From Burkholderiales bacterium (GTDB taxonomy: Bacteria; Pseudomonadota; Gammaproteobacteria; Burkholderiales; SG8-39), in contig JBCKKZ010000002.1 of assembly GCA_038904015.1 (NCBI GenBank), positions 8,369-72,368 of the forward strand: DNA of 64,000 nucleotides, read 5' to 3'. Below the pieces are notes generated by a model that was not told the origin of the DNA, searched no databases, and saw nothing but the letters and a program-made list of their open reading frames with translations. Positions 1 through 32,952 of this stretch are shown piece after piece. Both the position numbers and the translations under genes were made by a program. Every line of letters starts with the position of its first letter. Position 1 is the first letter of the stretch.

Positions 1-1
1 T

Positions 2-607
2 ATCTTCCGTCGCGGCGGCGGCGAGCAGATGTGCCAGGAGATTGGCGTCCCATTTCTGGGTGCCTTACCTCTCGATGCCGATGTCGTCACCTGCGGTGAT
101 GAGGGTCGTCCGATCGTGGCAGACCAGCCAACGTCGGTCAGCGCCAAGGTGTATGCCGCCATCGCCACGGCGCTCGTGGAGCAGCTCCACGCGGCGGTCA
201 CAGTGCTGAAGCCCTTTGTGTGGAAGTGGGACAGTAACGAGGGGGTGCCAGGCTGGATGGAAGGCGCGGCGCGGTCTGCTGGATCGCAGAAGACCCCGAT
301 CGGTTTCCTGCGTCGCGATCCGCGTACCTTATCCATCCTCTGGGAGGACGGTCATCGCGACGACTTTGACGTCCGTGACCTGCGCTTGGCCTGTCATTGC
401 GCCCTCTGCGTCGAGGAGATGAGCGGACGCAAGCTGCTCGATCCAAAGACCATACGCTCTGATGTGAGCCCGCGACAGATCGTGAGCATAGGCAACTACG
501 CGATCCAGTTCGATTGGAGCGATGGCCATAACAGCGGGATATATTCGTTTAACGACCTGCGTGCCTTAGGCGCGCGCGCTGCGGCGAAGAGCGTTGAAAA
601 TGTCTGA
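2..607 (+). CDS. Mrp/ApbC(NBP35) Fe-S carrier ATPase C-terminus fused to a DUF971 (GBBH-N-like) domain; 5' end outside window
   Basis: IFRRGGGEQMCQEIGVPFLGALPLDADVVTCGDEGRPIV is the Mrp C-terminus; then WEDGH...LRLACHCALC...IGNYAIQFDWSDGHNSGIYSF is DUF971. Confidence 0.85.
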   Translation: MFRRGGGEQMCQEIGVPFLGALPLDADVVTCGDEGRPIVADQPTSVSAKVYAAIATALVEQLHAAVTVLKPFVWKWDSNEGVPGWMEGAARSAGSQKTPIGFLRRDPRTLSILWEDGHRDDFDVRDLRLACHCALCVEEMSGRKLLDPKTIRSDVSPRQIVSIGNYAIQFDWSDGHNSGIYSFNDLRALGARAAAKSVENV

Positions 608-1226
608 TTTCATGCTTGCGGATCTGCCGGTCAGCATTCGCGCGGAGACTTCGCTCAACGACCCCGACACTTGCAAGTTCATCGTGAGCCGTACCTTGCA
701 TCCTGGCGGCCCCTTCTTTTTCGGCAACAAGGAACGGGCAGCCGGTTCGCCGCTCGCCGAGCGACTGTTCGCACTCCTTGGCGTGGCCAACGTGCTCATT
801 GCCGAGAGCGTGGTGACCATCTGCAAGGAGCCTATCGCCTCGTGGTCAGGACTGAAAGCAGCCATCGGGACGGCCATCCGGACGCAGCTGCTGACTGGCG
901 CGCCGGCGATCTTGGAGATGCATGCCTACACCAGCACGCAAGGAAGATCCGATGCAGAGCTTAATACGGCTGTTCAGGAACTCCTGGACAAGCAGGTCAA
1001 TCGTTCAATCGCTAACCACGGCGGGAAGATTTCGATTGTGGAGGTCCGGCAAGGGAAGCTTTTCATCACCATGAGCGGCGGCTGCCAGGGATGCGCGTCC
1101 TCTCAGGTGACGCTGAGGCAGGGATTCGAAGTCATGCTGAAAAGGGTCGCCCCGGAAATCGAGGAAATTGTGGATACGACGAACCACGCAGCGGGGAAGC
1201 AGCCGTACTACCCGCGCCATGAGTAG
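600..1226 (+). CDS. NifU/Nfu-type Fe-S carrier (Nfu N-terminal + NifU C-terminal domain)
   Basis: [18 protein letters not shown] (Nfu-N); [11 protein letters not shown]...[18 protein letters not shown] (CxxC). Confidence 0.85.
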
Positions 1227-3006
1227 CCCTATGACAAATCGACTGTCCCAGGAAACCTCCCCAACCGTCGCGACGCTAGCCGATCTCGCAAAGTTGGCAA
1301 ACTACTCGCTCATGGATACTCTCAACTGCGATCCTGACGCGAAAGCAAACGGAGCCGACCACACGCCGCGACAAGTCTTCACGGGCCACTATGTCCCCGT
1401 CAATCCCACGCCTATCAAAGACCCCGAGTACGTCGCGCACAGCAAAAACTTTTTTCGCGAACTTGGCTTTGCCGACAACATGGCACAGTTGCCCGAGTTC
1501 GTCCGCATGTTCTCCGGCGACATCTCGCACGCTCCGGAGCCGATGCGCAAGGTCGGTTGGGCGTGTGGCTACGCACTTTCCATCTTCGGCACCGAATACT
1601 ACCAGCAGTGCCCGTTCCAAACCGGCAACGGATACGGCGACGGTCGTGCAGTTTCCGTGCTTGAAGCCGTTATCAACGGTCGACGCTGGGAAATGCAGCT
1701 GAAAGGTGGCGGCCGGACGCCATACTGCCGCGGCGCGGACGGTCGCGCCGTCCTGCGCTCGAGTGTCCGCGAGTTCCTGGCACAGGAGCACATGCACGCG
1801 CTCTTCGTTCCAACGTCACGGTCTCTGAGTTTGTACGTTTCAAAAACGGAGAAGGTCAAGCGGCCGTGGTACTCGGAGGGCTCGCGCTCGGAGGATCCCG
1901 ACATGCTTATATCGGAGGCAGTCGCCATCTCGACGCGCGTCGCACCGTCGTTCATTCGGATCGGCCAACTCGAGCTCTTCGGTCGCCGTGCCCGCAAGCA
2001 GGAACACCCGAAAGCAATGGAGGAACTCGAGAAGATTGTGTTGCACTCGATCGATCGTGAGTACGCTGACGTCATCGACAAGAAACTAACCACCGCCGAA
2101 AAAGTGGTGTTGCTCGCGCGCGAGTTCCGCAGCCGCCTTACGTCGCTGGTGGCGAACTGGATCCGCGTCGGCTACTGCCAGGGCAACTTCAACAGCGACA
2201 ACTGCGCGGCCGGTGGCTTCACACTCGACTACGGTCCATTCGGATTCTGCGATGTGTTCAACCCGCACTACCAGCCATGGACGGGTGGCGGACATCACTT
2301 CTCGTTCCTGAACCAACCAGTGGCAGCGGAACGCAACTTCCACATGTTTTGGACGGCATTGCGGCCGTTGCTGACGTCGCATCCGGACTATCTGCGACAG
2401 CTCGACGAGATTCGAAGTGGCTTTTCGAAAGTGATGCAAGCGCAAATGGAGAAGATGTGGGCTGCCAAACTTGGACTTGGCACTTTTCACGCGGCGTTGT
2501 TCAGTGAGCTCGAAACGCTCATGGTGCAAACTCCTGTCGATTACACCATCTTCTTCCGCGAGCTCTCGATGCTACCTGACGACATTGGCCCACTCAAAAA
2601 AAGCTTCTACAAAGACTCGAAGCACGCCATGGCTTCAATGCACCCGACGGTCGAGACAGACCCCGAAGGGATGGACAAGCGCTGGTCCGAGTGGCTCACA
2701 AAATGGAAATCGCTCATCGGCAGCGCCAGCACGACCGACGCGAATGCTGCTCCGCCCCGCTCCCGTGAGGAGCTCTCTAGGCAGATGAAACTCGTCAACC
2801 CAAAATACAGTTTACGAGAGTGGTTCCTTGTGCCTGCGTATCAGCAAGCGACCGCAGGGAACTACTCTCTAGTTCGAGAGCTGCAGGAAGTCATGACGCA
2901 GCCATACGCCGAGCAGTCGAAGGACGTGGAGGCGAAATACTATAGGCTGAAGCCATCTGAGTTCTGTGAGGTCGGTGGATTGTCGTATGTGAGCTGCTCG
3001 TCGTGA
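1219..3006 (+). CDS. selO: SelO/YdiU-family protein adenylyltransferase
   Basis: [53 protein letters not shown]-terminal SCSS; start could be 1231. Confidence 0.9.
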
Positions 3007-4967: not shown

Positions 4968-5288
4968 ATGAGTGAGTGGGTGACGGTAGCGCGGGTCGAC
5001 GAACTCGCGCCGGGCGAGTGGCGGGTCGCGGATGTGGACGGCGCGCAGGTCGCGGTATTCAACCTCGACGGCCAACATTACGCCATCGAGGACGTCTGCA
5101 CCCATGATGCTGGACAGCTCACCGGCGGCAGCGTCGAAGGCGACCAGATCGTTTGCCCGCGCCACGGCGCACGCTTCTGCATCAAGACCGGCGCCGCGCT
5201 GACCGCACCCGCTTATGAAGCGACCGCCAAATTCCCCGTGCGCATTGAAAACGGCGTGATCCAAGTACGCGACGACCGCTGGGATTGA
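4968..5288 (+). CDS. Rieske [2Fe-2S] ferredoxin
   Basis: CTH...CPRHGARF Rieske motif, 106 aa. Confidence 0.9.
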   Translation: MSEWVTVARVDELAPGEWRVADVDGAQVAVFNLDGQHYAIEDVCTHDAGQLTGGSVEGDQIVCPRHGARFCIKTGAALTAPAYEATAKFPVRIENGVIQVRDDRWD

Positions 5289-5324: not shown

Positions 5325-5735
5325 ATGGCAGACTTGGACAAAAACACGCCTTCCCCGACTGAAATCAAGCTGCATCAAAAATCGCGCGTGCTGGTAATTA
5401 CTTTCGCCGACGGCAAGCGCTTCAAGTTGCCCTATGAGTTCCTGCGCGTTTATTCACCCTCAGCGGCAGTGACCGGTCACGGGCCGGGACAGGAGGTGCT
5501 GCAAATCGGCAAGCAGAATATCGAGATCACGCAACTCGAGCCGGTTGGCACGTATGCGGTGCAACCGGTGTTTTCCGACGGCCACAATACCGGTATCTAT
5601 TCCTGGGATTATTTCTACACCCTGGGCATGAACCAGGACGAAATGTGGCAACGCTACTTGCGGCGAATGGAAGAGGCGGGCGCAAGCCGGGAACCCGTGC
5701 TGGGTGCCGTCCCGCAACGCCCCAAATCAAAGTAG
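5325..5735 (+). CDS. DUF971 (GBBH-N-like) protein, copy 1
   Basis: LPYEFLRVYSPSAAVTGHGPGQEVLQ...FSDGHNTGIYSW; RBS aaagga. Confidence 0.9.
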   Translation: MADLDKNTPSPTEIKLHQKSRVLVITFADGKRFKLPYEFLRVYSPSAAVTGHGPGQEVLQIGKQNIEITQLEPVGTYAVQPVFSDGHNTGIYSWDYFYTLGMNQDEMWQRYLRRMEEAGASREPVLGAVPQRPKSK

Positions 5736-5741: not shown

Positions 5742-7205
5742 ATGGATAACCGCGATGATTCCTGCCTGCTAAACAGCGCCGGCGAAGAATATTGGGCAGA
5801 CCCCGCTACGCCGCTCAAGGTCGTACTGATCAATCCCTACGAGCTGGGCCGGCAGCCGTTCGGCCTGGCCGAGCCGTCCGCATGGTTGAAGCAGGCCGGA
5901 TTCAGCGTGCAGTGCATCGACCTCTCTTTGCAAAAACTCGATCCGGCATTGCTTGCCGGCGCGAAGCTGGTGGCGCTGTATGTCGGCATGCACACCGCCA
6001 CCCGCATCGCGGTCGAAGCCATTCCGCGCATCCGTGAAATGGCGCCGCACGCGCATCTGTGCGTGTACGGCCTGTATGCGCCGATGAACCAAAAGCTGCT
6101 GCGCGGCCTCGGCGTGAAAACCATTCTGGGCGGCGAGTTTGAACCGGGACTGCTGAGCCTGGCGCAGCGGCTGCGCGCTGGGGAAACGTGCGATGTGCAA
6201 ATCGAGCCCGTGGTGAATTTAGCCAAAATAGACTTCATCACGCCTGATCGCTCCGGCTTGCCGCACCTGCAACGCTACGCTCATTTGATATTGCCGGACG
6301 GCGCTAAAAAAATACTTGGCTTCATTGACGCAAGCCGAGGCTGCAAGCACCTGTGCCGCCACTGCCCGGTGGTGCCGGTCTATGAGGGCAAGTTTCGCGT
6401 GGTGCCGGTCGATGTGGTGCTGACTGACATCGTGCAGCAGGTACAAGCGGGTGCTGAGCATATTTCCTTCGGCGACCCGGATTTTTTCAACGGCCCGACC
6501 CATGCCATGAAAGTGCTTGCGGCGATGCACGCCAAATTTCCCGACCTGAGCTTTGATGCCACCATCAAGATTCAGCACCTCATCAACCACGCCGAACTGC
6601 TGCCCCGGCTGAAGGCGGCGGGTTGTGTATTCATCCAATCGGCGGTTGAGTCGGTGGATGATAAGGTGCTGGAGTATTTCGCCAAAAACCACACACGCAC
6701 CGATTTTGAACGCGCTTTACAACTGTGCCGTGAAGCTGGCATATCCCTGGCCCCAACGTTTGTGGCATTCACGCCCTGGACCACATTGGCGGGCTACCTC
6801 GACCTGCTGCGCACGCTGGTGCGTTTGCGTCTGGTGGAGGCGGTGCCACCGATTCAGCTTTGCATACGCCTACTGGTGCCGGAAGGCTCCTATTTGCTTC
6901 AATTGCCCGGTTTCCGGGAATTGATTGAGGCGTTCGATGCGAAATTGCTCGGCTATCCGTGGCGGCACGCCGATCCTCGCGTGGACGCTTTGCAGCAGGC
7001 GGTGCAAGCCTGTGCCGCGCACGGCGATCAAGAGGGATTGGCGCGCAGCGACATATTCGAGCAAATTTGGCGGCTCGCGCACGCCGCGCTCGGCATCGAA
7101 GTGTTGCCACTCACCCGGGCGGATTTTGGACAACCCATCGCACGCCTGTCCGAGCCCTGGTACTGCTGCTCCGAGCCCACCGAGCAACAACTGCAGAGCT
7201 TTTGA
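5742..7205 (+). CDS. CUAEP/CCAEP-tail radical SAM protein with B12-binding-like N-terminal domain
   Basis: SRGCKHLCRHC (CxxxCxxC), INPYELGRQPFGLA N-terminus, C-terminal WYCCSEP. Confidence 0.85.
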   Translation: MDNRDDSCLLNSAGEEYWADPATPLKVVLINPYELGRQPFGLAEPSAWLKQAGFSVQCIDLSLQKLDPALLAGAKLVALYVGMHTATRIAVEAIPRIREMAPHAHLCVYGLYAPMNQKLLRGLGVKTILGGEFEPGLLSLAQRLRAGETCDVQIEPVVNLAKIDFITPDRSGLPHLQRYAHLILPDGAKKILGFIDASRGCKHLCRHCPVVPVYEGKFRVVPVDVVLTDIVQQVQAGAEHISFGDPDFFNGPTHAMKVLAAMHAKFPDLSFDATIKIQHLINHAELLPRLKAAGCVFIQSAVESVDDKVLEYFAKNHTRTDFERALQLCREAGISLAPTFVAFTPWTTLAGYLDLLRTLVRLRLVEAVPPIQLCIRLLVPEGSYLLQLPGFRELIEAFDAKLLGYPWRHADPRVDALQQAVQACAAHGDQEGLARSDIFEQIWRLAHAALGIEVLPLTRADFGQPIARLSEPWYCCSEPTEQQLQSF

Positions 7206-7215: not shown

Positions 7216-7510
7216 ATGAAGCGCGTTCTGCTGCTGTTGCCGACCACCAGTTATCGTAACGACGATTTCCTCGCCGCCGCAAAAAAAAATTGAATGTGGA
7301 TAATATCAGCGTCGCGAATTATTTCCATCAACTGGCGCCGCTATGGGGCATGAGTCCGATTCAGTCGGTGCCGTTCGATCAGCCTGAAGTCGCGCTGCAA
7401 CAGGTGCTCGCCGCGCTGGGACGCAAGCCCGACGTGGTGCTCGCGGTGGACGACAGCGGCCTGGAACTGGCGGCGCTGTTGCGCGAACGCTTGCACCTGC
7501 CGGGCTCACG
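7216..7510 (+). pseudogene. ATP-grasp protein, frameshifted and truncated
   Basis: MKRVLLLLPTTSYRNDDFLAAAKK then a frame change at the A9 run 7281-7289; the other frame continues HQLAPLWG...KPDVVLAVDDSGLELAALL, collinear with the intact paralog at 31041-32336; similarity ends near 7510. Confidence 0.8.
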
Positions 7511-7649
7511 CCGTCACGCCTGCCGCAAGCAAGGCAGGACGAGATCACGCAAACAGCGCACCGCGCCTGTGAACTGGCAGGGCTCACCAGCGGCCCGGTG
7601 CATGCCGGATATTCCCGTCAATCAGGCGAAATCCCCGACGTAAACCCGG

Positions 7650-7880
7650 CTACTCCGCCGGAGCGCGCAGGTCGGGATAATTCTCTTTCACTTCGTGACG
7701 GTTGCCTTCCGCTTCGTACCAGTAGAACTTATCGGGCTCTTCGGTCTTTGCGGTGGTTTTGTGAGTGCTGTCACAAAACGGCTGGTTCTTCGACAACCCA
7801 CAGCCGCATATATACTTGGTTTCCGTGCCCACTGTCACCGGATACGGGCCTGTCCGGGTTCTTTTGACGATCCTTGCCAT
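7650..7880 (-). CDS. CDGSH iron-sulfur domain protein
   Basis: ICGCGLSKNQPFCDSTH matches the CDGSH motif. Confidence 0.85.
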   Translation of the reverse strand: MARIVKRTRTGPYPVTVGTETKYICGCGLSKNQPFCDSTHKTTAKTEEPDKFYWYEAEGNRHEVKENYPDLRAPAE

Positions 7881-8773: not shown

Positions 8774-8850
8774 TGTGTGGTAACCGCGGCAATCGCGGCG
8801 ATCAGCAGGATCGCGGCAAAAAAGTAAAAGATGGCGGTTTCGAAGAACAT
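8770..8850 (-). pseudogene. nuoJ: nuoJ 5' stub (26 aa)
   Basis: MFFETAIFYFFAAILLIAAIAAVTTQ* immediately after nuoI; stop overlaps fpr ATG (ATGA). Confidence 0.75.
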
Positions 8851-8853
8851 CGT

Positions 8854-9342
8854 CTAGCGGTAGGCCGCGTCGGCGGCGCGGTCCTTCGCGATCTGCTCCT
8901 CGTAGCGGTCGCCCACCGCCATCAGCATCGGTTTGGTGTAGATCAGGTCGCCGCGCTCTTCGCCGTGGTACTCGATCACGCGCGTCAAGACGACGGCGTC
9001 CACCGGGCAGGCCTCCTCGCAGAAGCCGCAGAAGATGCACTTGGTGAGGTCGATGTCGTAGCGCGTGGTGCGGCGTGTGCCGTCGGCGCGCGCCTCGGAT
9101 TCGATGTGGATGGCGAGCGCCGGGCACACCGCCTCGCACAGCTTGCAGGCGATGCAGCGCTCTTCGCCGTTGGGGTAGCGGCGCAGCGCGAGCAGCCCGC
9201 GAAAGCGCGGGCTCATCGGCGTCTTCTCCTCCGGGAACTGCACCGTGATCTTGCGCGCGAACAGGTGCCGGCCGGTCAGCATCATGCCGCGCAGCAGATC
9301 CAGCAGCAGGAAGGAACGGAAGAACTCAAGCGTGCGTTGCAT
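8854..9342 (-). CDS. nuoI: NADH-quinone oxidoreductase subunit I (2x[4Fe-4S])
   Basis: [21 protein letters not shown]...[13 protein letters not shown]. Confidence 0.95.
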
Positions 9343-9356
9343 GGCCGGGCCTCATT

Positions 9357-9415
9357 TTGCGTCCGCCGAAGGAATTCCGGAGCGCGTCGTGCAGGCGCTG
9401 CAGCTTGGGCGTCAT
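9357..9415 (-). pseudogene. nuoC: nuoC 5' stub
   Basis: MTPKLQRLHDALRNSFGGR directly after nuoB resembles betaproteobacterial NuoC N-termini; then jumps to the nuoI leader. Confidence 0.55.
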
Positions 9416-9443
9416 GTCGTATTAGCGATCGTCAGAGCGAGCG

Positions 9444-9920
9444 TCAGCGAGCGATCGTATTGGTGCGTTTGATCTTGTTCTGCAGCTGGATAATGCCGTA
9501 GAGCAAAGCCTCGGCCGTGGGCGGGCAGCCCGGCACGTAGACGTCCACCGGCACGATGCGGTCGCAGCCGCGCACCACCGAATAGGAGTAGTGGTAGTAG
9601 CCGCCGCCGTTGGCGCAGGAGCCCATCGAGATCACCCAGCGCGGCTCGGCCATCTGGTCGTAGACCTTGCGCAGCGCCGGCGCCATCTTGTTGCACAGCG
9701 TGCCGGCGACGATCATCACGTCGGACTGGCGCGGGCTCGGCCGGAATACGATGCCGAAGCGGTCGAGGTCGTAGCGCGCGGCGCCGGCGTGCATCATCTC
9801 CACCGCGCAGCAGGCGAGGCCGAAGGTCATCGGCCAGAGCGACCCGGTGCGGGCCCAGTTGATCAGCTTGTCGGCAGTGGTGGTGGCGAAGCCTTCGTGG
9901 AGTACGCCTTCTATTCCCAT
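9444..9920 (-). CDS. nuoB: NADH-quinone oxidoreductase subunit B (cluster N2)
   Basis: MGIEGVL...[12 protein letters not shown]...[12 protein letters not shown]...VPGCPP. Confidence 0.95.
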
Positions 9921-10060
9921 TCCAGGGCTCCTTTCATCCATTCGTAGACGAAACCCACGACAAGGAGCGCGAGGAAAACCATCATCATGACGCGGTCCTG
10001 ACGAGGTCGAGCAGACTCGCCGTCTGCGATAGTGATCGCTGCAGTTGGATGGGACGACAT
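9911..10060 (-). pseudogene. 49-aa chimeric ORF: DUF6522-like start fused in frame to the nuoA 3' end
   Basis: [49 protein letters not shown]; strong RBS GGAAGGAG; overlaps nuoB start. Confidence 0.75.
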
Positions 10061-10091: not shown

Positions 10092-12017
<1,926 letters not shown>

Positions 12018-12044: not shown

Positions 12045-12374
12045 TCAAGCAGAAGTGGCGCGGAGGGCGTTCCGGGTCTTCAGACTGTCGACGGCGTGCA
12101 CCAGGGGCGCGTCGCCCTGCATCAGGTGGGCGATTGCGCCGTACACCAGCCGCTGGCTATCGAGCATGCTCCTGCCGGCGAACGCGGGCGACGTCACTTC
12201 GATGCTGAAGTGTCCGCCGCCGCCGTTGACCGCGGCCCGTGAATTGGGGATCTGCTGCTCGATGGCCTCGCGCAGCGCGTCGGCCGACAGGCCGAGCTTG
12301 GGCGCGAGCATCTCGGCATCGAGGGTGATCTCGCCGTCTGCGATGGTGATCGCTGATGCGGGAACAGGACTCAT
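12045..12374 (-). CDS. BolA/IbaG-family protein with a DUF6522-like N-terminus
   Basis: GGGGHFSIEVTSPAFAGRSMLDSQRLVY...HAVDSLKT (BolA); N-terminus [23 protein letters not shown]. Confidence 0.75.
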   Translation of the reverse strand: MSPVPASAITIADGEITLDAEMLAPKLGLSADALREAIEQQIPNSRAAVNGGGGHFSIEVTSPAFAGRSMLDSQRLVYGAIAHLMQGDAPLVHAVDSLKTRNALRATSA

Positions 12375-13839: not shown

Positions 13840-13841
13840 GA

Positions 13842-13946
13842 ATGGACCGCGTCGCGCGCGAGAAGCTGAAATGGAAGTGCCGCCGGGGGCTGCTCGAGTT
13901 CGACCTCGTGCTCGCGCGCTACATGGAGCGGCACGCAACGGGCTGA
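13842..13946 (+). pseudogene. sdhE: sdhE 5' stub (34 aa)
   Basis: MDRVAREKLKWKCRRGLLEFDLVLARYMERHATG*; RRGxLE motif, truncated. Confidence 0.8.
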
Positions 13947-18505: not shown

Positions 18506-18506
18506 T

Positions 18507-23249: not shown

Positions 23250-23355
23250 AGCGCATTCCTCTATTTTTCGCAGGGCAGATAATGAAAAAGTCCTATCACC
23301 TTCCTCTATCTGCGTGGCAACACCATGCAATCTGCTTTCAGCGAACCATTCTCCA

Positions 23356-23619
23356 TCAGACAGTAAGGGCAGAGGATCGTCTCTTTGTTGCCCATGTCGA
23401 GTTAGGCGTCTCAATGTACCGCTTGAACGCAAGGTAGCTCTCAATGAATCCGCGTCTATATTCTGGCAGGCTCGCATGGCTTGGCTTCGTGAATCCGCGT
23501 TTCCGACTTGTCAATACCGCTTTCCGGTACTGGCTACGACAGTGCATCGCAAATGCATTCGCCCCGGCAATACCGTCACGGTTTTCCACAAACCAAAGTC
23601 GTTGTTTCTCTGCTTCCAT
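23356..23619 (-). CDS. Hypothetical 87-aa protein
   Basis: RBS GGAG + ATG; [16 protein letters not shown]...[21 protein letters not shown]; lies in the operon path between marR2 and gltB. Confidence 0.55.
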
Positions 23620-23635: not shown

Positions 23636-23755
23636 CTAATCGGTGATCGGTAAGCGCAGTGGGGCGAGCGCTTGAAGATGCGCTCGCAGCCGGCGGGCGA
23701 GCGTTTCAGGCGTGTGGTGCTCAACGGTCGTCGTCGCGGCGGGAACAGGACTCAT
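23636..23755 (-). pseudogene. 39-aa stub after marR copy 2 (MSPVPA start + BolA-like N-terminal fragment)
   Basis: MSPVPAATTTVEHHTPETLARRLRAHLQALAPLRLPITD*; first six codons shared with 12045-12374. Confidence 0.5.
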
Positions 23756-24378
23756 CGCGGTGCGGCTCCGGCGACAGGGCCCTTCACCGTCATCGGCTTG
23801 CCTTGGACGAAGTTGATGCAGACCCCGTCCAGCTCCTCCAGAAGCAGCGGCTCGCTCGAGAACCCGCACGCGTAGGGCGTCTGTCCCTCCCGGCTGGCGC
23901 CGTCGCCTTCCAGATGCTTACACGACGCGCAGGTGCCGAAGGGAGGTTTGCCTCTCTCCCACGCCACCTGGCCGAGCATGCGCTGCAAGGCGTTGGCGAA
24001 GTGGCCTTGGACACTGGGGGGTAGGGAGTCCGCAGCACGGACCAGGGATTCGAAGGGGTCGTTCGCAAGAATGCCCCTGGCTTTATCGGTCAGAACGAGC
24101 CGGACACTGCGCCGGTCGGCCTCTGAGCGCATGCGCGTCAGATAGCCTTGGGTTTCGAGGTTTTTGATCGTCTGCGACGCCGTGCCCCGGGTCGTGCCAT
24201 GGAACGCGGCGAAGGCGGACGGCGTGCGCGAGAAGCGGTTGGCCCGCGCGAAGTATCTGAGCACAGCCCACTGGACTGCCGTCAGCCCCTCCACGAGCCC
24301 CTCGCCGGACGCTATGCGCCCCAAGTGCAAGACCAGCTCCGCGATGGCGCGACTGTCCATTTTCAGCTCTTTGATCAT
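23752..24378 (-). CDS. MarR-family regulator with Cys-rich tail, copy 2
   Basis: Near-identical 208-aa paralog of 12371-12997. Confidence 0.9.
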   Translation of the reverse strand: MIKELKMDSRAIAELVLHLGRIASGEGLVEGLTAVQWAVLRYFARANRFSRTPSAFAAFHGTTRGTASQTIKNLETQGYLTRMRSEADRRSVRLVLTDKARGILANDPFESLVRAADSLPPSVQGHFANALQRMLGQVAWERGKPPFGTCASCKHLEGDGASREGQTPYACGFSSEPLLLEELDGVCINFVQGKPMTVKGPVAGAAPR

Positions 24379-24385: not shown

Positions 24386-24441
24386 TAGTAGCGTTTAGAA
24401 ACTATATTGACAAGACATTAGTTTCGAATAGATACTATAAT
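24386..24441. promoter_or_regulatory. Promoter with two putative MarR operators (copy 2)
   Basis: TAGTAGC-N5-GAAACTA 24386-24404; TTGACA 24407-24412; TAGTTTC-N5-GATACTA 24419-24437 overlapping GATACT/TATAAT. Confidence 0.7.
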
Positions 24442-24512: not shown

Positions 24513-24680
24513 ATGAGTGCCAAGAAAGAAAAGTTTGTTACTTCAGATACTTATACTTTAATTCAGGAGTTACCGATTTCGTCGCGCCAGCGTGAAGTTG
24601 CGCTGAGTATGTTGGGTAAAACCGAAGTGATAGCCAATGGCATCGTGTGGGTGGTTAACAGGATCAATCATCTGCGATGA
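24513..24680 (+). CDS. Small hypothetical protein (55 aa)
   Basis: RBS AAGGAG; stop overlaps the next ATG (ATGA). Confidence 0.45.
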   Translation: MSAKKEKFVTSDTYTLIQELPISSRQREVALSMLGKTEVIANGIVWVVNRINHLR

Positions 24681-25423
24681 AGGAATTTTCCCGGTGGCCA
24701 ATCACCCAAGAAAGTCAGGCAGCGAAGATGCTTTCCACCTTGGAGCAGGCGATCCGTCAGATGCAGGTGGGGAAACCGGTCATTTTGCTTGATGCCGACC
24801 ACCGGGAGGGCGAAGGCGATTTCGCCATAGCGGCGCAGTTCTGCACACCGGAGCTCATAAACTTTCTTCTATCGAAGGGCCGCGGCCTGGTCTGCCTTTC
24901 ATTGCCTCCGGCCGTTGCCGCCCGTATCGGCGTCAAGCCCATGGTGATCGAGGGTGAGTCGTCTTCGGACACGCCTTTTGGCGTGCCTATCGACATCGAC
25001 GATGGATCCTCCGGTATCGCCGCGTCGGCACGCTGTGCCACGATCAGGGCTGCCTGTGATGAATCCAAGTCCGCACGGCATTTCAAGCGTCCGGGACATG
25101 TCGCCACCCTGCTAGCCAACCCGCACGGGCTTCGAGGCCGTATCGGCCACACCGAAGCAGTGTTGGACCTGCTTCGCCTGGCCGGAATCGCCGGACCGGG
25201 AGTGTTGTGTGAAATCCTGAATGCCGATGGCGAGATCGCGACACCCGATCAACTCTTCGCGATCGGTAAAGAACACGCCATCCCCGTTCTCCACATCGAC
25301 ACGTTGCTCGAGCACCAGAGGCCGCAAGCGCATCGACCAGATTCTGGAGCAGCTCAGACGTCTGGGAACATGGCTGATGCCGTACAGAGTAGTGGAACCC
25401 GCTTGATCCGTTACGGCATTTAA
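24677..25423 (+). CDS. ribB: 3,4-dihydroxy-2-butanone 4-phosphate synthase (divergent)
   Basis: DADHREGEGD, GRGLVCL, RPGHV, RIGHTEA, VLCEI; alternative start 24728. Confidence 0.85.
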   Translation: MKEFSRWPITQESQAAKMLSTLEQAIRQMQVGKPVILLDADHREGEGDFAIAAQFCTPELINFLLSKGRGLVCLSLPPAVAARIGVKPMVIEGESSSDTPFGVPIDIDDGSSGIAASARCATIRAACDESKSARHFKRPGHVATLLANPHGLRGRIGHTEAVLDLLRLAGIAGPGVLCEILNADGEIATPDQLFAIGKEHAIPVLHIDTLLEHQRPQAHRPDSGAAQTSGNMADAVQSSGTRLIRYGI

Positions 25424-25508: not shown

Positions 25509-26204
25509 ATGCATCCACGTCACTGGGAACAACACCGCTCTGAACGCACCGGCTGGCTTCGCGCCGCGGTTTTGGGCGCGAACGACGGCATCGTTTCCAC
25601 CGCGAGCCTGGTGCTGGGTGTTGCGGCTGCGCAGGCGACTCACAGCACCGTATTGGTCGCGGGGGTTGCCGGCCTGGTCGCGGGCGCCATGTCGATGGCT
25701 GCAGGCGAGTATGTGTCCGTCCACTCACAGGCAGACACCGAACAGGCCGACATCGAGCGTGAACGCAACGAGATCAAGAAGGACTATCCAGGCGAGAGCA
25801 AAGAACTGGCGGCGATCTACGTCGGTCGAGGTCTTGACCCTGCGCTTGCGAAGCAGGTCGCCGATCAACTCATGGCGCATGACGCGGTCGGCGCACATGC
25901 CCGCGACGAACTCGGGATTTCTGAAACGCTTGGTGCGCGTCCGCTTCAGGCGGCCTTTGCTTCCGCCGCCAGCTTCGCTGTGGGCGCAGCCATGCCTCTC
26001 TTTGTCACGGCATTAGCCCCGGAGGCGAGCCTGATCCCCATCGTCTCAGCTACTTCGCTGGTGTTCCTCGCGCTCCTGGGTGGGGTGGCGGCGCGCGCCG
26101 GCGGCGCGCGTGTGACGGTGGGTGCAATGCGCGTCACGTTCTGGGGTGCGCTGGCCATGGGGTTGACCGCTGGCGTCGGAACTCTGTTTGGAACAGTGGT
26201 GTGA
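25509..26204 (+). CDS. VIT1/CCC1-family Fe2+/Mn2+ transporter
   Basis: WLRAAVLGANDGIVS, AGAMSMAAGEYVSV, HARDELG. Confidence 0.9.
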   Translation: MHPRHWEQHRSERTGWLRAAVLGANDGIVSTASLVLGVAAAQATHSTVLVAGVAGLVAGAMSMAAGEYVSVHSQADTEQADIERERNEIKKDYPGESKELAAIYVGRGLDPALAKQVADQLMAHDAVGAHARDELGISETLGARPLQAAFASAASFAVGAAMPLFVTALAPEASLIPIVSATSLVFLALLGGVAARAGGARVTVGAMRVTFWGALAMGLTAGVGTLFGTVV

Positions 26205-26923
26205 GCGAATACAACTCCGCCCGTAAAGTGTCGAGCGCAGCGGAAATTCTTGGACTAAGCAAACCGCCGATCGCCATCGGCTTTTTCGAGTCGCCGCCCG
26301 CTGGCGTACCTCGATGGGAAGGCGGGTCGGTTGCGGCCGGTTGCGTCTTCTGGGACAAAGCGATGAACGGGCAGACCTTTTATACGATTCCATCCGATCA
26401 TTACAACTGCGCGGTTGGGAGTTACACCCACAACATCGCGCTGCCGGCGGAGCGCGCGCACGAACTGAATGACACGATTGCGTTCATGGCTGAAAACAAC
26501 TACGTCGCCACCGCTGAAGTGCCGGGCATCCCCACACTGGCCAAATCCCCTGGTGCTGTGGCCTACGGCCCCGTGGACCGGGCCGGCTTCAAACCTGATG
26601 TGGTGCTGATTGCGGCGAAACCGGCGCAGGCCATGCTGATTTACGAAGCCGCCATCAAGGCAGGGGCAGGTAGCGCTCTCACTAATGCTCTTGGTCGCCC
26701 GGCCTGCGCTGTCCTGCCACTGACAACGACCAACGGCCAAGCGTCAATCTCGCTCGGCTGTAAAGGCAACCGGACATTTACCGGCCTGCCGGACGAAGAA
26801 ATGTATGTGGCCATTCCCGGTGACCAATGGGAAGCTGTCATCGAGAAACTTACCGAAACGCACCGAGCCAACTTGGCGATGGAAAAGTATTACTCGAATC
26901 GAAAGACCCAACTTAACCCTTAA
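26201..26923 (+). CDS. DUF169-family protein
   Basis: AAGCVFW, HYNCAVG, GRPACAV, SLGCKGNR; Cys pattern typical of DUF169. Confidence 0.7.
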   Translation: MSEYNSARKVSSAAEILGLSKPPIAIGFFESPPAGVPRWEGGSVAAGCVFWDKAMNGQTFYTIPSDHYNCAVGSYTHNIALPAERAHELNDTIAFMAENNYVATAEVPGIPTLAKSPGAVAYGPVDRAGFKPDVVLIAAKPAQAMLIYEAAIKAGAGSALTNALGRPACAVLPLTTTNGQASISLGCKGNRTFTGLPDEEMYVAIPGDQWEAVIEKLTETHRANLAMEKYYSNRKTQLNP

Positions 26924-28990: not shown

Positions 28991-29419
28991 TCAGCCGTGA
29001 ATGTAGCTCTCGAGCTGGTTGATGATGAATTGCTGCTCGGAAATGATGTCTTTGACCAGATCGCCAATCGACAGGAGGCCCACGACCTGATCATTGGCCA
29101 CCACGGGCAGGTGGCGGATGTGCTTGTCCGTCATCAACGCCATGCAGTCTTCGTTGGTATGGGTCGGGGTGACAAAAACAACGTCCCGCGTCATCACCTC
29201 GCGGACCGGCGTATTGGCTGACGACCTGCCTTGCAAGACAACCTTTCTTGCGTAATCCCTCTCCGAAAACATTCCCACCAGGCGCGGGCCGTCCATGACG
29301 AGTACTGCGCCGACATTCTTTTCCGCCAGCAGCTTTAGCGCGTCCAGCACCGTGGCGTCTGGCGCGATGCCAACGATGCCGCTCGTTTTCAGCGCCAGCA
29401 GTTGTGCAACGGTCTTCAT
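28991..29419 (-). CDS. CBS-domain protein
   Basis: GMFSERDYARKV...IRHLPV...LSIGDLVK. Confidence 0.9.
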   Translation of the reverse strand: MKTVAQLLALKTSGIVGIAPDATVLDALKLLAEKNVGAVLVMDGPRLVGMFSERDYARKVVLQGRSSANTPVREVMTRDVVFVTPTHTNEDCMALMTDKHIRHLPVVANDQVVGLLSIGDLVKDIISEQQFIINQLESYIHG

Positions 29420-29661
29420 TGCGCGCTCCCCGAAAACCGAAGGCTAACCCGCCCGGCCTCAAACAGCATCTCCCCGGGCTTCATGCTGCCCTCCTCAGTT
29501 GCGGATGTTACTCCCGCGTGACACGCCTTTTGCATCGCAAACCAAGATGTGCAGTGCAATATGGCGTTCCGGGAGTAGAGTTTCGCTCGGAGGAGGTGAG
29601 CCATGCCCGGCACCCGACCACCTCCCCTTCCCCCTCCCCCACAGTCTCCGACCACCATGCG

Positions 29662-30585
29662 CTAACCGCTCAGAAAATCCCGGATGTGCTCCGACACCTC
29701 CGGCGCGCGCAGGTATCCGAAGAGCTTGTGATGGTTGGGCTTGCCGTTCGCCTCGTAGTCGTTCAGGATCAGATCGTCTTTCACGGCGACGCCCCCACTG
29801 TTGGGACCATAGTCATCGCTCAAGTGGGTGTCGAACGCGACCGGGTCTTTCCGGTCCGCGAAGTTGATCCAGCTCCGAGTGACGATCGTGGGGGTCCGCA
29901 CCCGCGGATCGTGGGTGTTGATCTTCTCGATGTTGAGCTTGACGTGGGGCAGCCCGAGCGGGGAGCCGATGGTCACGAAATGGCTCACCCGCACACCTGG
30001 GTCTGGCTTGCGGCTTCCCAGCTTGCGCAGCACGTCATAGGCGATGATCGAGCCCATGGAATGGGCGATCAGCATGATGTCGTGCCCCTGGTTTGAGACG
30101 AGCGTCTGATCGAGGTCTTCCTGCAGCACTTCCCGCGCGACCCGCAGTTTGCCTTTGCGGTCCTTGATCCGGCGCGCCGGATCGTAGTAGAACGCGAGAT
30201 CCTTCAGCTTCTGCTGCAGCACGAAATCCGCGGCCTGGTCCATTCCGAGGGTGGATTTCGCGGCATCGAGCGCGCCGCCGAGCAGGCTCTGGGCGCCGGC
30301 GCGCAATCCATCCATGAATCCTTCCTTGTATTTCTTCAACGCCCCGGCCTCGGCGGGCAAGTACGGCTCATCGTCGTAGAGTGAGTCAAAGCTGAACTCG
30401 GGGAGTTGGTGGAGGGGATTCTTGTACAGCAGGTCGGCCCAATAGACGTCGACGAAGCTAAAGTCCAGGTCGAGGTTGCAGTTCTTCCTGCACCCTTCCT
30501 TGATGGAATCGATCCACCACTGCGCCTGAATCGCGCGGGCGGGCTTGTTCGACAGGCCGTGTATTCCGATGATGACCTTTGCCAT
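29662..30585 (-). CDS. Alpha/beta-hydrolase-fold protein
   Basis: IIGIHGL, LIAHSMGSIIAYD, FVTIGSPLG, WINFADRKDPV; RBS GGAG. Confidence 0.75.
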   Translation of the reverse strand: MAKVIIGIHGLSNKPARAIQAQWWIDSIKEGCRKNCNLDLDFSFVDVYWADLLYKNPLHQLPEFSFDSLYDDEPYLPAEAGALKKYKEGFMDGLRAGAQSLLGGALDAAKSTLGMDQAADFVLQQKLKDLAFYYDPARRIKDRKGKLRVAREVLQEDLDQTLVSNQGHDIMLIAHSMGSIIAYDVLRKLGSRKPDPGVRVSHFVTIGSPLGLPHVKLNIEKINTHDPRVRTPTIVTRSWINFADRKDPVAFDTHLSDDYGPNSGGVAVKDDLILNDYEANGKPNHHKLFGYLRAPEVSEHIRDFLSG

Positions 30586-30639
30586 GGAGTTCTCCCTGAC
30601 GGCGCGATCCGGTCTCAATAACAGATAGATCCTATGCAG

Positions 30640-30800
30640 GGCCGCGCGGGTTAGCCTCTGGCGGCATTCTCCACCCAAAGAGGAAGGAGGCCAGAAGATG
30701 AACCCCGCGACCCACGGAACGGAAGGTAGCGCATCGGCGCCGGTGTTGTACATGGCGCTGGAGCTGAGCAACAAAAGCTGGAGGCTGGCGTTTGGCGACG
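30640..30800 (+). mobile_element. IS110-family transposase 5' remnant
   Basis: MNPATHG...VLYMALELSNKSWRLAFGD, then unrelated sequence. Confidence 0.6.
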
Positions 30801-31040: not shown

Positions 31041-32336
31041 TCATGCGCTTTCTCGCCCTGCATTTCGATCACGATAGCGCCTACGGCCGGAAGTAAGCGC
31101 GAAGCGCAAGGGCACTTCGGGCCTGATTTTGATTTCGAGCCGTTGCAGTGCGTTACGCAGAGATGCCTCGACGCCAGCGGCGGCTCGCCCCCGCGCAAAA
31201 ATGAAGCCCAGATAAGCGCTGCTCTCGGGCGGCGGCGCCACGATCTGCCCCCGCTCGGCGGTGATGCGGATGCCGGTGACCCCTTTTACTGCGAGCGCCT
31301 TGCCTAGGCCAGTAACCTCATCGAGGATGCCGCGCGCCGGAATCGGGACCATCATCACGCCGCACGCCGCGCGATGGCGTGCCACCGGCAGCGCGCGGCC
31401 GAGCGCATGGCGCAGGATCAATTCCTCCAGCGTCATGCCGAGCGCGTGGGTGAGCACGCTGCCGCACAGGCCCCCGATCGAACGCGGCGCGATTTCCAGC
31501 AGCCAGATGCCGCGCGCATTGATGCGAAACTCGGCATGTACCGGCCCGCTCGCAAGACCGGCATGGCGGCAGGCCTGCGCGACTTCGCGCGCGGCGGCTC
31601 GCTGCACGCGTCGCGGCAGCCGCGACGGCGTGACGTAGATCGTTTCCTCGAAATACGGGCCATCGAGCGGGTCGGGCTTGTCGAACAGCGCGAGCAACCG
31701 CAGGCGCCCGTTCGCGAGTAACCCTTCAAGCGCGTACTCGCGGCCGGGAATGAATTCCTCGATCACCAGGCCGAGCCGCGCGGCGTCGCGATCGCCTTGT
31801 TTCTGGATGCGCCGCACCCGCGCGACTGCGCGGATCAGCCCGGGGCGGTCGTCGGCGCGAATCACGCCGCGGCTCGCCGACAGGCGGCGAGCTTTGACCA
31901 CGGCGGGAAAGCGCACTGCGCGCAACGCTGCAGGATCGGCGTCCGAGCGCAAATGCCGGAACCACGGCTGTTTCATGCGATGGCGCTTCTGCAGCGTTCG
32001 GAACGCAAGCTTATCGCGCAGCAGGCGCACGCTGCCAACCGGATTGCCCGGCTGTCCGAGCCTGCGGCTGAGCAGCGCGGCGAGCTCGACCCCGTGGTCG
32101 TCCACCGCAAGCACCGCGTCGGGCTTGCGTCCGAGATGACGCAGCGCCAGCGCGAGCGCGCGCCGCGGCCGGTCGAACGGCAGCGCCATCAGCGGGTGCA
32201 GGCCCCACTGCGGCGCGAGGCGATGGCAATAGTCGGCGGCCGGGACGATTTCAACGCCGAGCCTTTGCGCCGCCGCGCGGAAGGCGTCGTTGCGGTACGA
32301 GGCGGCAGGCAGCAGCAGCAGTACCTGCTGTTTCAC
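31041..32336 (-). CDS. ATP-grasp domain protein (intact partner of the CCAEP radical SAM)
   Basis: LSASRGVIRAD, IEEFIPGREYALEG, FDKPDPLDGPYFEETIYVTPS, LEIAPRSIGGLC. Confidence 0.88.
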   Translation of the reverse strand: MKQQVLLLLPAASYRNDAFRAAAQRLGVEIVPAADYCHRLAPQWGLHPLMALPFDRPRRALALALRHLGRKPDAVLAVDDHGVELAALLSRRLGQPGNPVGSVRLLRDKLAFRTLQKRHRMKQPWFRHLRSDADPAALRAVRFPAVVKARRLSASRGVIRADDRPGLIRAVARVRRIQKQGDRDAARLGLVIEEFIPGREYALEGLLANGRLRLLALFDKPDPLDGPYFEETIYVTPSRLPRRVQRAAAREVAQACRHAGLASGPVHAEFRINARGIWLLEIAPRSIGGLCGSVLTHALGMTLEELILRHALGRALPVARHRAACGVMMVPIPARGILDEVTGLGKALAVKGVTGIRITAERGQIVAPPPESSAYLGFIFARGRAAAGVEASLRNALQRLEIKIRPEVPLRFALTSGRRRYRDRNAGRESA

Positions 32337-32548
32337 AGGACCGCGAGTTGCTCGTGGGTCGGCTCGGCGCAGCAGTACCAGGGCTCAGACAGGCGCGGAA
32401 TCGCCCGGCTCGCGTTGTTGACGGCCAGCGGCGGCAGGCCGTTGCGCTCGGGTACGATGAAATCCACCTTGCCGCGATGCACGACCGGCGGCGCTTCGGC
32501 ATCGCCCGCGGCGCCATTCAAGTTGACCTGGCAGGCCGTTGGTCTCAT
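32333..32548 (-). pseudogene. In-frame internally deleted CCAEP-tail radical SAM remnant (71 aa)
   Basis: PPVVHRGKVDFIVPERNGLPPL and RLSEPWYCCAEPTHEQL align to two distant parts of 5742-7205; no CxxxCxxC. Confidence 0.8.
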
Positions 32549-32952
32549 TTTGTCTTGGGGCGCGCTTCGAACCCCGGCTGCGGCTCTCGGCTGGCGCCGG
32601 CTTCCTTGAGCCGCTTGAGATATGCGCTCCACATCTCGTCCTGGTGCAGGCCGAAATCGTAGAGCAGGTCCCACGAATACATGCCGGTTTCGTGACCGTC
32701 GGAGAAGTATGGCTGGATGGCGTAGGTGCCGACCGGCTCGATGCTGTTGATATTGACGTTCTGCTTGCCGACCTGCAGCACTTCCTGCCCTGGCCCGTGC
32801 CCGCGCACTTCCGCGGAGGGCGAATAAACGCGCAGCAGCTCGCAGGGCAGCTGGAACGTCTTGCCATCGGCAAACGAGATCTCGAGCAGGCGCGATTTCT
32901 GGTGCAGCTTGATCTCGGTCGGCTGCGGCACGTCTTTGTTCGGTCCCGCCAT
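32545..32952 (-). CDS. DUF971 protein, copy 2
   Basis: LRVYSPSAEVRGHGPGQEVLQ...FSDGHETGMYSW. Confidence 0.9.
   Translation of the reverse strand: MAGPNKDVPQPTEIKLHQKSRLLEISFADGKTFQLPCELLRVYSPSAEVRGHGPGQEVLQVGKQNVNINSIEPVGTYAIQPYFSDGHETGMYSWDLLYDFGLHQDEMWSAYLKRLKEAGASREPQPGFEARPKTK

Follow-up and report, generated by a model that had tools for sequence, protein, structure and literature searches.

Iron-sulfur (Fe-S) homeostasis is normally the task of a dispersed chromosomal regulon. SufR and IscR are Fe-S-cluster-sensing repressors of suf and isc operons, and the Escherichia coli responses to Fe-S damage that run through SoxRS, IscR and RyhB include fpr, acnA, fumC, ribA, nfsA, ndh and suf. 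In mitochondria, the late ISC factors ISCA1/2, NFU1, BOLA3, GLRX5 and IND1/NUBPL serve LIAS, SDHB, ACO2, NDUFS7/8 and ETFDH. We analyzed a 64,000-nucleotide stretch of a Burkholderiales metagenome-assembled genome (MAG; 2.06 Mb in 123 contigs, 63% complete, 0.09% contamination), referred to as the window and corresponding to positions 8369-72368 of contig C2 (JBCKKZ010000002.1), in which Fe-S genes accompany a MarR-family regulator with a four-cysteine (Cys4) tail. The window probably holds most of a ~42-kb horizontally acquired, mosaic Fe-S homeostasis island that is mobile, that captures host genes and whose modules are controlled by MarR. What is elsewhere a dispersed regulon would here be one transferable unit with a dedicated regulator, found in three proteobacterial classes and packaging assembly, delivery, fresh client enzymes, cluster-free bypasses, and the handling of reductant and iron.

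The sole precedent found in the literature is a study of the Antarctic Polaromonas plasmids pE3SP1, pE5SP1 and pE10SP1 (Ciok et al. 2018, PMC6015842), the text of which describes isc/suf/nif-like modules together with LipA and proposes that they help against reactive oxygen species (ROS) where UV and oxygen solubility are high. Aconitase is filed there under carbon metabolism, and MarR has no occurrence in the main text; Supplementary Table S9 may list MarR genes. These modules are the same element as the island. Plasmid pE3SP1 matches the window at 91% nucleotide identity over 20% of 24.9 kb, and the gene order A-type carriers-sufBCDS-SufU-BolA-GrxD-NifU-FolE-FdxA-LipA-rhodanese-Mrp-Nfu-SelO-SagB is shared, with the run from LipA through rhodanese, Mrp, Nfu and SelO to SagB common to the plasmids and this island, as is the divergent arrangement aconitase<-MarR->NDH-2. 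The plasmids also carry two suf modules, MoaA, VIT and IS6 transposases, which flank modules, and two to three copies of a MarR that is 74% identical to that of the island. The main text of that study does not cover operators, triplicated regulators, lone NuoB, NuoI or SdhB, bypass enzymes as one unit, or spread beyond Polaromonas, and the island differs from the plasmids in belonging to another genus and in carrying host-derived nuo and sdh genes. A first-pass annotation of the window had put forward an undescribed "spare-parts" system for Fe-S proteins. For the assembly part the word undescribed must be given up; for this MarR, its sites and the captured NuoB, NuoI and SdhB, no description was found in the texts searched.

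The island occupies C2:1-41975 and thus extends from the first base of the contig, 8.4 kb before the window, to approximately window position 33,600. Gene identities were taken from Pfam and NCBIfam scans unless stated otherwise, and these confirmed every gene named in the first-pass annotation, including two Cys-tailed MarR copies. Nineteen of the 42 open reading frames (ORFs) of the island encode Fe-S proteins or assembly and carrier proteins, three encode MarR, eight are allied and 12 have no evident link; for window positions 1-32952 the corresponding figures are 14, 2, 6 and 9 of 31 ORFs. The eight allied ORFs encode NDH-2 and NAD-dependent formate dehydrogenase (NAD-FDH), both cluster-free bypass enzymes, as well as Fpr, RibB, VIT1, rhodanese and two DUF971 proteins. 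To call nearly every intact gene an Fe-S gene was thus an overstatement, but the enrichment itself is extreme: Fe-S proteins account for a few percent of bacterial genes, and against this background figure the island lies far beyond chance. Left of the window, C2 carries SufB (truncated by the contig end), ErpA, an IscA-like carrier, IscR (TIGR02010), MarR3, a 137-aa ORF, NDH-2, FolE, LipA and rhodanese. Codon usage is heterogeneous, as had been noted, with G+C contents at third codon positions (GC3) of 0.87-0.94 for NuoI (0.94), NuoB, SdhB and aconitase and 0.66-0.71 for Fpr and GltD (both 0.66), GltB and SelO. The suspicion of several donors was borne out by identity comparisons of the cargo with genus and other-island copies.

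In repertoire the island resembles the E. coli SoxRS/IscR/RyhB responses (Fpr, a stress aconitase, FumC, a riboflavin gene, NDH-2 and SUF). The E. coli regulons, however, are chromosomal, dispersed and under unrelated regulators, whereas the island is clustered, mobile and headed by a Cys4 MarR, and nothing in those regulons corresponds to its lone respiratory Fe-S subunits. Both the carriers (A-type carriers, Nfu, BolA, Grx and Mrp/NUBPL-like proteins) and the clients (LipA, SdhB, aconitase, NuoB, NuoI and ETF-ubiquinone oxidoreductase, ETF-QO) form sets nearly identical to those of mitochondrial late ISC; this likeness is an analogy of content only, the island being bacterial, mobile and transcriptionally organized.

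The three MarR copies of the island are 93-99% identical (MarR1 versus MarR2, 93%; MarR3, 98.6%) and match MarR-domain models above cut-off (Pfam MarR_2, 47 bits; HTH_27, 38 bits; MarR, 33 bits). Their C-terminal extension of ~65 residues contains four invariant cysteines, C-x2-C-x17-C-x15-C, which were kept in 49 of 49 aligned homologues and in 30 of 30 in a second alignment reaching down to 48% identity. The motif persists in relatives of 37-45% identity on Octadecabacter and Ruegeria plasmids. When the tail alone was compared with 1.84 billion representatives, 39 clusters were returned, nearly all of MarR-length proteins or fragments, and only three long repeat-like proteins fell outside the MarR subfamily. 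No SufR or Rrf2 model of NCBIfam matched MarR at E<=1e-3, and weak generic MarR equivalogs scored far below their cut-offs. A 2024 review (PMC11672702) treats Zn-sensing MarRs, in its text, as the only characterized metalloregulatory members of the family. Like OhrR/MgrA, which respond to thiol oxidation, and AdcR/ZitR, which respond to Zn, the island protein has a MarR fold and a palindromic predicted operator and is probably derepressed on modification; unlike characterized MarRs, it bears the Cys4 extension, for which no solved homologue exists. With SufR and IscR it would share a winged-helix regulator with cysteines, a position divergent from a suf operon, probable autoregulation and, possibly, the sensing of cluster status to set assembly capacity. 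It differs from both in its fold family, its cysteine spacing and a predicted regulon that reaches client and bypass enzymes, and the island encodes a true IscR as well. The Cys4 MarR is a candidate for a new metallo- or redox-sensing MarR subfamily.

Sixty nucleotides upstream of marR are conserved in all three copies and were duplicated together with the gene each time. A 19-bp near-palindrome with three or fewer mismatches lies at a fixed offset in 28 of the 44 marR upstream regions examined. With a position weight matrix built from the marR-upstream sites, the promoters of the three marR genes scored 34-37 bits and a second site at a distance of 33 nt scored 17-25 bits, compared with 17.7 bits for the best match elsewhere in the 2.06-Mb genome; scores at the matrix's own training sites are circular, and the information lies in the specificity across the genome. 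Promoter-like hexamers are placed back-to-back on both strands, with one palindrome over each -10 element. No RNA family was detected at E<=1 in window 11900-13200 or 23400-24750, and no Rfam RNA or riboswitch reached its gathering score in window 1-36000.

The ORF that follows marR overlaps its stop codon by 4 nt in all three island copies, and an ATG does so in 30 of the 51 rows compared between loci. At about a dozen loci, most of them alphaproteobacterial, this ORF is a 107-aa DUF6522 protein. In betaproteobacterial islands, the DUF6522-type ORF is cut to its first 6-45 codons and fused to varying cargo, with the junctions at variable points within these codons. As only this part of the ORF remains, with variable cargo fused to it, cargo is exchanged just downstream of marR. 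A reading of the repeated piece behind marR as a 5' fragment of bolA was rejected, as it is the N-terminus of the DUF6522-type ORF coupled to marR. On a plasmid of Octadecabacter arcticus 238 (L110:10795-12054), DUF6522 forms a fusion with a complete Nfu (Nfu_N + NifU), which by Rosetta-stone reasoning hints that the domain may take part in Fe-S delivery; no mention of DUF6522 was found in the literature. The island offers a functional lead for this family and for DUF971. Several islands also contain a conserved ORF of 126-155 aa between marR and NDH-2, with a weak VMAP-M0 match below cut-off. The 137-aa ORF that follows MarR3 is located on C2 left of the window (L001:3752-4165), and MarR2 keeps only the first 39 codons of it.

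Homologues of this MarR numbered 2016 at E<=1e-3 in a set of 5.8 billion proteins, with the top 120 all at least 81% identical. Among species-representative genomes, 57 loci with 62-88% identity were found in Beta-, Gamma- and Alphaproteobacteria. The hosts included Polaromonas, Ramlibacter, Usitatibacteraceae and other Burkholderiales among betaproteobacteria, together with Methylobacter, Methylomonas, Glaciecola sp. 33A, Brumicola pallidula DSM 14239, Methylophaga, Brevundimonas, Aurantimonas, Hyphomonas and Paracoccaceae; homologues in Gemmatimonadota were 49-52% identical. The gene was found in none of 24 same-genus, 16 further same-order and 400 other sampled same-order genomes.

Neighbouring genes were counted at 58 loci by tblastn and flank clustering, families without a member in this island being named from one representative each. 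The most frequent were monothiol Grx (22), A-type carriers (21), Nfu (20), SufB (20), SufS and SufD (15 each), BolA and SelO (13 each), LipA, SufC and NDH-2 (12 each) and aconitase (10), followed by rhodanese, SufU and MoaA (9 each), FolE, Mrp and Rrf2 (7 each), NAD-FDH (6), IlvD (4), NuoI and SdhB (3 each) and NuoB and ThiC (2 each). FumC (L054), FdxA and TenA were also present. Fe-S enrichment around MarR homologues elsewhere, lone NuoB, NuoI and SdhB included, had been set beforehand as the point on which the spare-parts idea could fail, and it was found. Typically, MarR adjoins a suf operon with variable cargo; marR is divergent from A-type carrier-sufB in ~20 loci, and in this MAG iscR intervenes.

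Cargo proteins are 85-97% identical across classes (SufB, 89-97%), which indicates recent transfer, and the Mrp-DUF971 copies of other islands are 91-95% identical to that of the window. On the Octadecabacter arcticus 238 plasmid, IS6 copies enclose FdxA, a lone SdhB, aconitase and MarR->Mrp->Nfu-DUF6522. Because MarR was not found in relatives, cargo is this similar across classes, pE3SP1 matches the window and IS6 elements occur on the plasmids, we conclude that the island is of foreign origin and horizontally acquired. Domain scans of the island ORFs gave no integrase or transposase, the IS6 transposases and tyrosine recombinase of the plasmids had no tblastn match on C2, and no tRNA or tmRNA was found in the 64-kb window, the left island border being lost at the contig end. 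An integron-like element was ruled out, as no integrase, attC-like repeats or transposase were found in the island, and a tRNA-targeted integrative element was ruled out by the lack of tRNA and tmRNA genes in the window. The island was seen mostly in bacteria of icy habitats and may move among cold, oxygen-rich environments.

NuoB and NuoI of the island lie outside any nuoA-N operon, flanked only by 12-65-nt stubs of nuoA, nuoC, nuoH and the region behind nuoI. Nucleotide homology to nuo operons covers window 9375-9986 (45 nt of nuoA, nuoB and ~65 nt of nuoC; 91% to C64) and 8789-9354 (~12 nt of nuoH, nuoI and 50-65 nt beyond). Broken stubs of old operon neighbours had been claimed for both nuo and sdh; they are present for nuo, and sdhB is accompanied by ~70 nt of downstream flank. 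An sdhA stub before sdhB was sought and not found, homology beginning at 13153. The housekeeping nuo operon is located elsewhere in the MAG, with nuoA-H on contig C64 and the last 26 nuoI codons onward on C86. Its assembly breaks exactly at nuoI (C64:1-53, C86:4362-4511), so that the first ~136 codons of nuoI are lacking; the presumed cause is the island copy, which would have behaved as a repeat.

Island NuoB is 93% (aa) and 91% (nt) identical to the MAG's own nuoB on C64 and 93-96% identical to same-genus housekeeping NuoB. It is 84% identical to the NuoB behind marR in a Polaromonas MAG, which is itself 95% identical to the nuo-operon copy of its own host. Similarly, an Alcaligenaceae MAG has a NuoI behind marR that shares 97% identity with the NuoI of its host, and NuoI of the present island is 88-90% identical to genus NuoI and 72-77% to others. 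As the island copies are closest to the nuo genes of their own hosts, NuoB and NuoI were recruited independently from local hosts at least three times. Genus copies of SdhB share 90-93% identity with one another and 84-85% with island SdhB; two alphaproteobacterial islands share an SdhB of their own (88%), unlike the host copies (72-79%). The dN/dS values against housekeeping copies were 0.10-0.17 for NuoB, 0.21-0.28 for NuoI and 0.18 for SdhB, and all cluster-ligand cysteines were retained (NuoB 6/6 and NuoI 8/8 shared with housekeeping copies; SdhB all 11). Therefore, the lone subunit genes are functional rather than debris. Elsewhere in the MAG, contig C11 opens inside an SdhB-like paralogue (C11:1-1824) that is 40% identical to island SdhB, and the ORF behind it combines Sdh_cyt membrane-anchor and TctC solute-binding domains, an unusual fusion.

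Second copies in the MAG were found for NuoB, NuoI (partial), LipA (66%), IscR (62%) and ErpA (78%); the 653-aa aconitase had no other copy in the 63%-complete assembly. Replacement of housekeeping genes by island copies was also considered. A second copy exists for four of eight functions (LipA, Nuo, IscR, ErpA), a split that incompleteness alone predicts and from which no conclusion on replacement was therefore drawn. By their identities, several island clients are foreign to the genus. Island ThiC is 78-80% identical to genus ThiC and 94% identical to a copy beside marR in a gammaproteobacterial MAG (L021), GltD and ETF-QO are 66-70% and 76-81% identical to genus copies, and the 653-aa aconitase type was found in none of 12 genus genomes, 84-91% identical copies lying beside MarR elsewhere. 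In two isolates, Glaciecola sp. 33A and Aurantimonas sp. A3-2-R12, the island aconitase comes on top of AcnA/AcnB-size genes. Brumicola pallidula DSM 14239 also has AcnA/AcnB-size genes, and its marR-adjacent aconitase (L047:8738-9857) is in two pieces, residues 1-338 and 610-646; that of Glaciecola sp. 33A is intact. Neither a TPP riboswitch at island thiC nor an FMN riboswitch at island ribB was found. Among three genus thiC leaders, one had a TPP element that scored 57 bits, which exceeds the gathering score, and one a sub-threshold hit (41 bits). The lack of riboswitches at the island genes fits a transfer to different control.

The mechanism that we propose would rest on three modules, each headed by a Cys4 MarR on a two-way promoter, with palindromes over the -10 elements of marR and of the divergent promoter, so that MarR would repress both its own operon and the divergent one. 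For MarR1 these would be BolA-ThiC-NuoB-NuoI-Fpr-CDGSH and, divergently, SdhB-FDH; for MarR2, GltBD-ETF-QO and RibB-VIT1-DUF169-aconitase; and for MarR3, the run from NDH-2 to the radical SAM gene and IscR-suf. The Cys4 site would carry an Fe-S cluster, or alternatively form a redox-active thiol or Zn site, and repression would be released when it is damaged or unfilled. The cargo would then provide (i) SUF and the late-acting 4Fe-4S carriers (A-type carriers, Nfu, BolA and Mrp), (ii) new copies of Fe-S enzymes and subunits that are labile to oxidants, (iii) the cluster-free bypass enzymes NDH-2 and NAD-FDH, with FumC in other islands, and (iv) reductant, flavin and iron handling by Fpr, RibB and VIT1. 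Plasmids and IS6-bounded units would spread the modules, local host genes (nuoB, nuoI) being picked up on the way. Oxidant damage would be the signal, in preference to iron scarcity or metals. We also considered a bolder proposal, in which the Cys4 MarR is a new class of Fe-S-cluster (status) sensor and lone NuoB, NuoI and SdhB are stress-induced subunits swapped into damaged complexes I and II; taken as a whole, we regard it as tentative and rather doubtful. If true, it would mean subunit-level repair of respiratory complexes, encoded on a mobile element that recruits subunit genes per host. The repeated recruitment of exactly nuoB and nuoI is a natural experiment that points to these parts of complex I as limiting survival when clusters fail. 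The island may likewise give a mechanistic basis to the oxidative-stress adaptation proposed for cryosphere bacteria, and cultivable hosts are available in Polaromonas sp. E3S and E10S, Octadecabacter arcticus 238 and Glaciecola sp. 33A.

Several observations weigh against a MarR-controlled homeostasis island of this kind. Regulation of the island operons by MarR is deduced from sequence alone. Strong operator-like sites are confined to the marR promoters, none of 17 bits or more occurring elsewhere on C2, so that control of distal genes hinges on putative long operons; the totals of the promoter and terminator scan did not exceed those of shuffled sequences, and only the coincidence with the conserved 60 nt was used. 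No MarR gene or operator-like site is near the genes at window 28,991-33,607, and 12 of the 42 island ORFs are without an evident Fe-S link. Profile matches to solved structures in the PDB reach only residue 142 of MarR, leaving residues 143-208 uncovered, and the Cys4 motif could be a structural Zn site. For ThiC, GltB/D, ETF-QO and SdhB no second copy was found in the assembled 63% of the MAG, so that of the complete loci expected elsewhere in the genome only nuo was recovered, and spare status is shown in this MAG only for NuoB, NuoI (partly) and LipA. The kit is also not one of Fe-S subunits only, as the first-pass annotation had it: most of the cargo consists of whole enzymes, cluster-free bypass enzymes are included, and the Fe-S subunits NuoE, NuoF and NuoG are absent. 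The cold-habitat link derives from record titles, three plasmid sources and run labels, with no controlled comparison, and the text of Ciok et al. (PMC6015842) places similar loci on the chromosomes of Polaromonas sp. JS666 and Rhodoferax ferrireducens. The spare-parts idea survived its own refutation tests where these were run and is partly supported. It has to be widened to whole and bypass enzymes, mobility and host-gene capture; it must also be narrowed, as part of it has been described before and several genes here can be called spares only provisionally.

If iron scarcity rather than oxidant damage were the trigger, the island would be an iron-sparing regulon that switches to SUF and cluster-free enzymes. 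NDH-2, NAD-FDH, RibB, SUF and FumC (the last at L054) are indeed hallmarks of iron starvation in the Fur, RyhB and IscR regulons of model bacteria. Such a regulon would hardly add iron-costly clients in the number seen here (GltBD, aconitase, ThiC, LipA, MoaA, SdhB, NuoB and NuoI), or a transporter of the VIT1 family, which exports or sequesters iron, and no Fur/Irr-type regulator or iron-uptake gene was seen in the island; we consider this explanation unlikely. The stress preferred by the first-pass annotation was poisoning of clusters by soft metals or metalloids (Cu, Co, Ag, Hg, tellurite, selenite). Heavy-metal P-type ATPases do lie within a few kb of MarR modules on pE3SP1 and pE10SP1, and the island has a selenoprotein-family radical SAM protein and SelO. 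Neither this island nor the recurrent neighbour families, however, include a metal efflux or resistance gene, and the hosts come, by record title, mostly from ice, lakes and sea ice rather than metal-rich sites, which leaves metals a very slim prospect as the trigger.

The genes might also have no common function, a plasmid-derived suf operon and its regulator having gathered unrelated genes and decaying duplicates by recombination. In favour of this, the region is heavily scrambled and contains pieces of ATP-grasp, radical SAM, SagB and nuo genes, 12 of its 42 ORFs are unrelated to Fe-S, and the cargo varies between loci. We nevertheless judge this improbable, because Fe-S enrichment is repeated across 57 loci and three plasmids, NuoB/NuoI were captured in three lineages, each time downstream of marR, purifying selection acts on the lone subunits, none of which has lost a ligand cysteine, and marR was triplicated with its promoter, one copy before each module. 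An artefact, either chimeric assembly of the contig or the binning of another organism's plasmid with this MAG, might be suspected from the 123 contigs, from the break of the housekeeping nuo operon exactly at nuoI and from the absence of MarR in all 40 relatives searched. Parts of window 7600-14000 were, however, present in 20 public runs from 14 studies, the best-matching of which are labelled ice, sediment, biofilm and microbial-mat metagenomes; six metatranscriptome runs contained only 6-7% of the sequence words sampled. Contigs of two runs from other studies (X4 and X5; ~98% identical, the ~2% divergence indicating other strains) span the junctions CDGSH-Fpr-NuoI, NuoB-nuoA'-ThiC, ThiC-BolA and SdhB-FDH-ETF-QO-GltD, which disposes of the concern that the odd junctions would not be bridged; only parts covered by such contigs were counted as evidence. 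Three runs contain an alternative joint, with nuoA'-NuoB directly behind marR (12354->10078 in run X1). Finished plasmids share these gene orders, and the closest matches of island NuoB and NuoI lie in this genus. In its right arm the contig aligns in patches with same-genus genomes (86-92% nt identity), and contamination is 0.09%. Misassembly and mis-binning were rejected on the bridging contigs, the finished plasmids, the genus-like NuoB and NuoI and the right-arm match, and are scarcely credible.

The features of the island within the window are listed in Table 1.

Table 1. Features of the Fe-S island in window coordinates, from left to right (nt, nucleotides; aa, amino acids).
Feature	Position	Strand	Remarks
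Mrp/NBP35-type P-loop NTPase, 3' part, with C-terminal DUF971	2..607	+	gene start C2:7722; Pfam ParA/NUBPL and GBBH-like_N
Nfu-type Fe-S carrier	594..1226	+	Nfu_N + NifU
SelO/YdiU-family protein adenylyltransferase	1168..3006	+	family present in 13 MarR loci
SagB/ThcOx-type dehydrogenase, 574 aa	3003..4727	+	
Rieske [2Fe-2S] protein	4968..5288	+	
DUF971 protein	5325..5735	+	paralogue of 32545-32952, 68% aa
Gene between DUF971 and ATP-grasp fragment	5742..7205	+	NCBIfam NF040546, 606 bits (cut-off 500)
ATP-grasp gene, N-terminal fragment	7290..7643	+	56% identity to 31041-32336
CDGSH iron-sulfur protein	7650..7880	-	
Ferredoxin-NADP+ reductase Fpr, 248 aa	8030..8773	-	GC3 0.66
Stub of post-nuoI region	8789..8853	-	nt identity 81% to C86:4362-4511, 87-88% to genus nuo loci
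Lone NuoI, two 4Fe-4S clusters	8854..9342	-	8 Cys kept; NCBIfam NuoI 299 bits (cut-off 135)
Junction: ~12-nt nuoH stub (to 9354) and ~65-nt nuoC stub (9375-9440)	9343..9440	-	
Lone NuoB, cluster N2 subunit	9444..9941	-	6 Cys kept; NCBIfam NuoB 274 bits (cut-off 116)
nuoA 3' stub, 45 nt	9942..9986	-	Pfam Oxidored_q4 C-terminus; nt homology stops at 9986
26-nt repeat of start of MarR-coupled ORF	10016..10041	-	copy of 12330-12355
ThiC, radical-SAM-like 4Fe-4S enzyme	10092..11975	-	without TPP riboswitch
109-aa ORF: DUF6522-type N-terminal stub and BolA domain	12045..12374	-	start overlaps MarR1 stop by 4 nt
MarR1, Cys4-tailed MarR-family regulator	12371..12997	-	likely true start Met7, 18 nt downstream
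Two 19-bp palindromic operator-like sites in back-to-back promoter-like elements	13005-13023, 13038-13056		
Lone SdhB	13144..13912	+	11 Cys kept; ORF to 13839, then ~70 nt co-duplicated downstream flank
NAD-dependent (metal-free) formate dehydrogenase	14001..15200	+	NCBIfam NF005750, 703 bits
ETF-ubiquinone oxidoreductase, 4Fe-4S	15303..16952	-	
Glutamate synthase small subunit GltD	17042..18553	-	
Glutamate synthase large subunit GltB	18507..23477	-	
39-codon stub of the 137-aa ORF that follows MarR3	23639..23755	-	
MarR2	23752..24378	-	93% aa to MarR1
Second copy of two operator-like sites and back-to-back promoter-like elements	24386..24437		
RibB (DHBP synthase)	24677..25423	+	without FMN riboswitch
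VIT1-family iron transporter	25509..26204	+	
DUF169 protein	26201..26923	+	
Aconitate hydratase, 653 aa	26939..28900	+	PRK07229 type
CBS-pair protein, 80-aa ORF and DUF900-like hydrolase	28991..30774	-	less clearly related to island
ATP-grasp ligase, full-length	31041..32336	-	
Remnant: 3' end of second radical SAM gene copy	32346..32395	-	inverted repeat
Second DUF971 protein	32545..32952	-	
GNAT acetyltransferase	33032..33607	-	last gene before variable defence-type region

The set DUF971-CC-tail radical SAM-ATP-grasp is present twice in inverted orientation (window 5325-7643 and 31041-32952), and the two sets have decayed in complementary fashion, one having lost most of the ATP-grasp gene and the other the radical SAM gene. 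Short remnants of SagB and ATP-grasp genes were also found on C19:14269-15894 and C1:15506-15563. The island radical SAM protein is related to the arsinothricin enzyme ArsL (251 bits), with a GNAT gene nearby, and the set may represent a small-molecule pathway.

To the right of the Fe-S island, window 33733-34397 and 43876-45301 form a decayed partial direct duplicate (92-96% nt identity, two internal deletions) comprising FMN-reductase and SocA/Panacea genes. The 9.5-kb segment between the duplicates encodes Fic, DUF1631, HsdR (type I restriction), DUF2442-HTH, a nucleotidyltransferase and DUF6933, and has the look of a defence islet that was inserted there. Window 38309-50229 contains restriction genes of type I (HsdR) and of a type III-like kind (ResIII plus endonuclease, 999 aa), together with genes of toxin-antitoxin type, and this defence-rich right arm is only patchily common to same-genus genomes.

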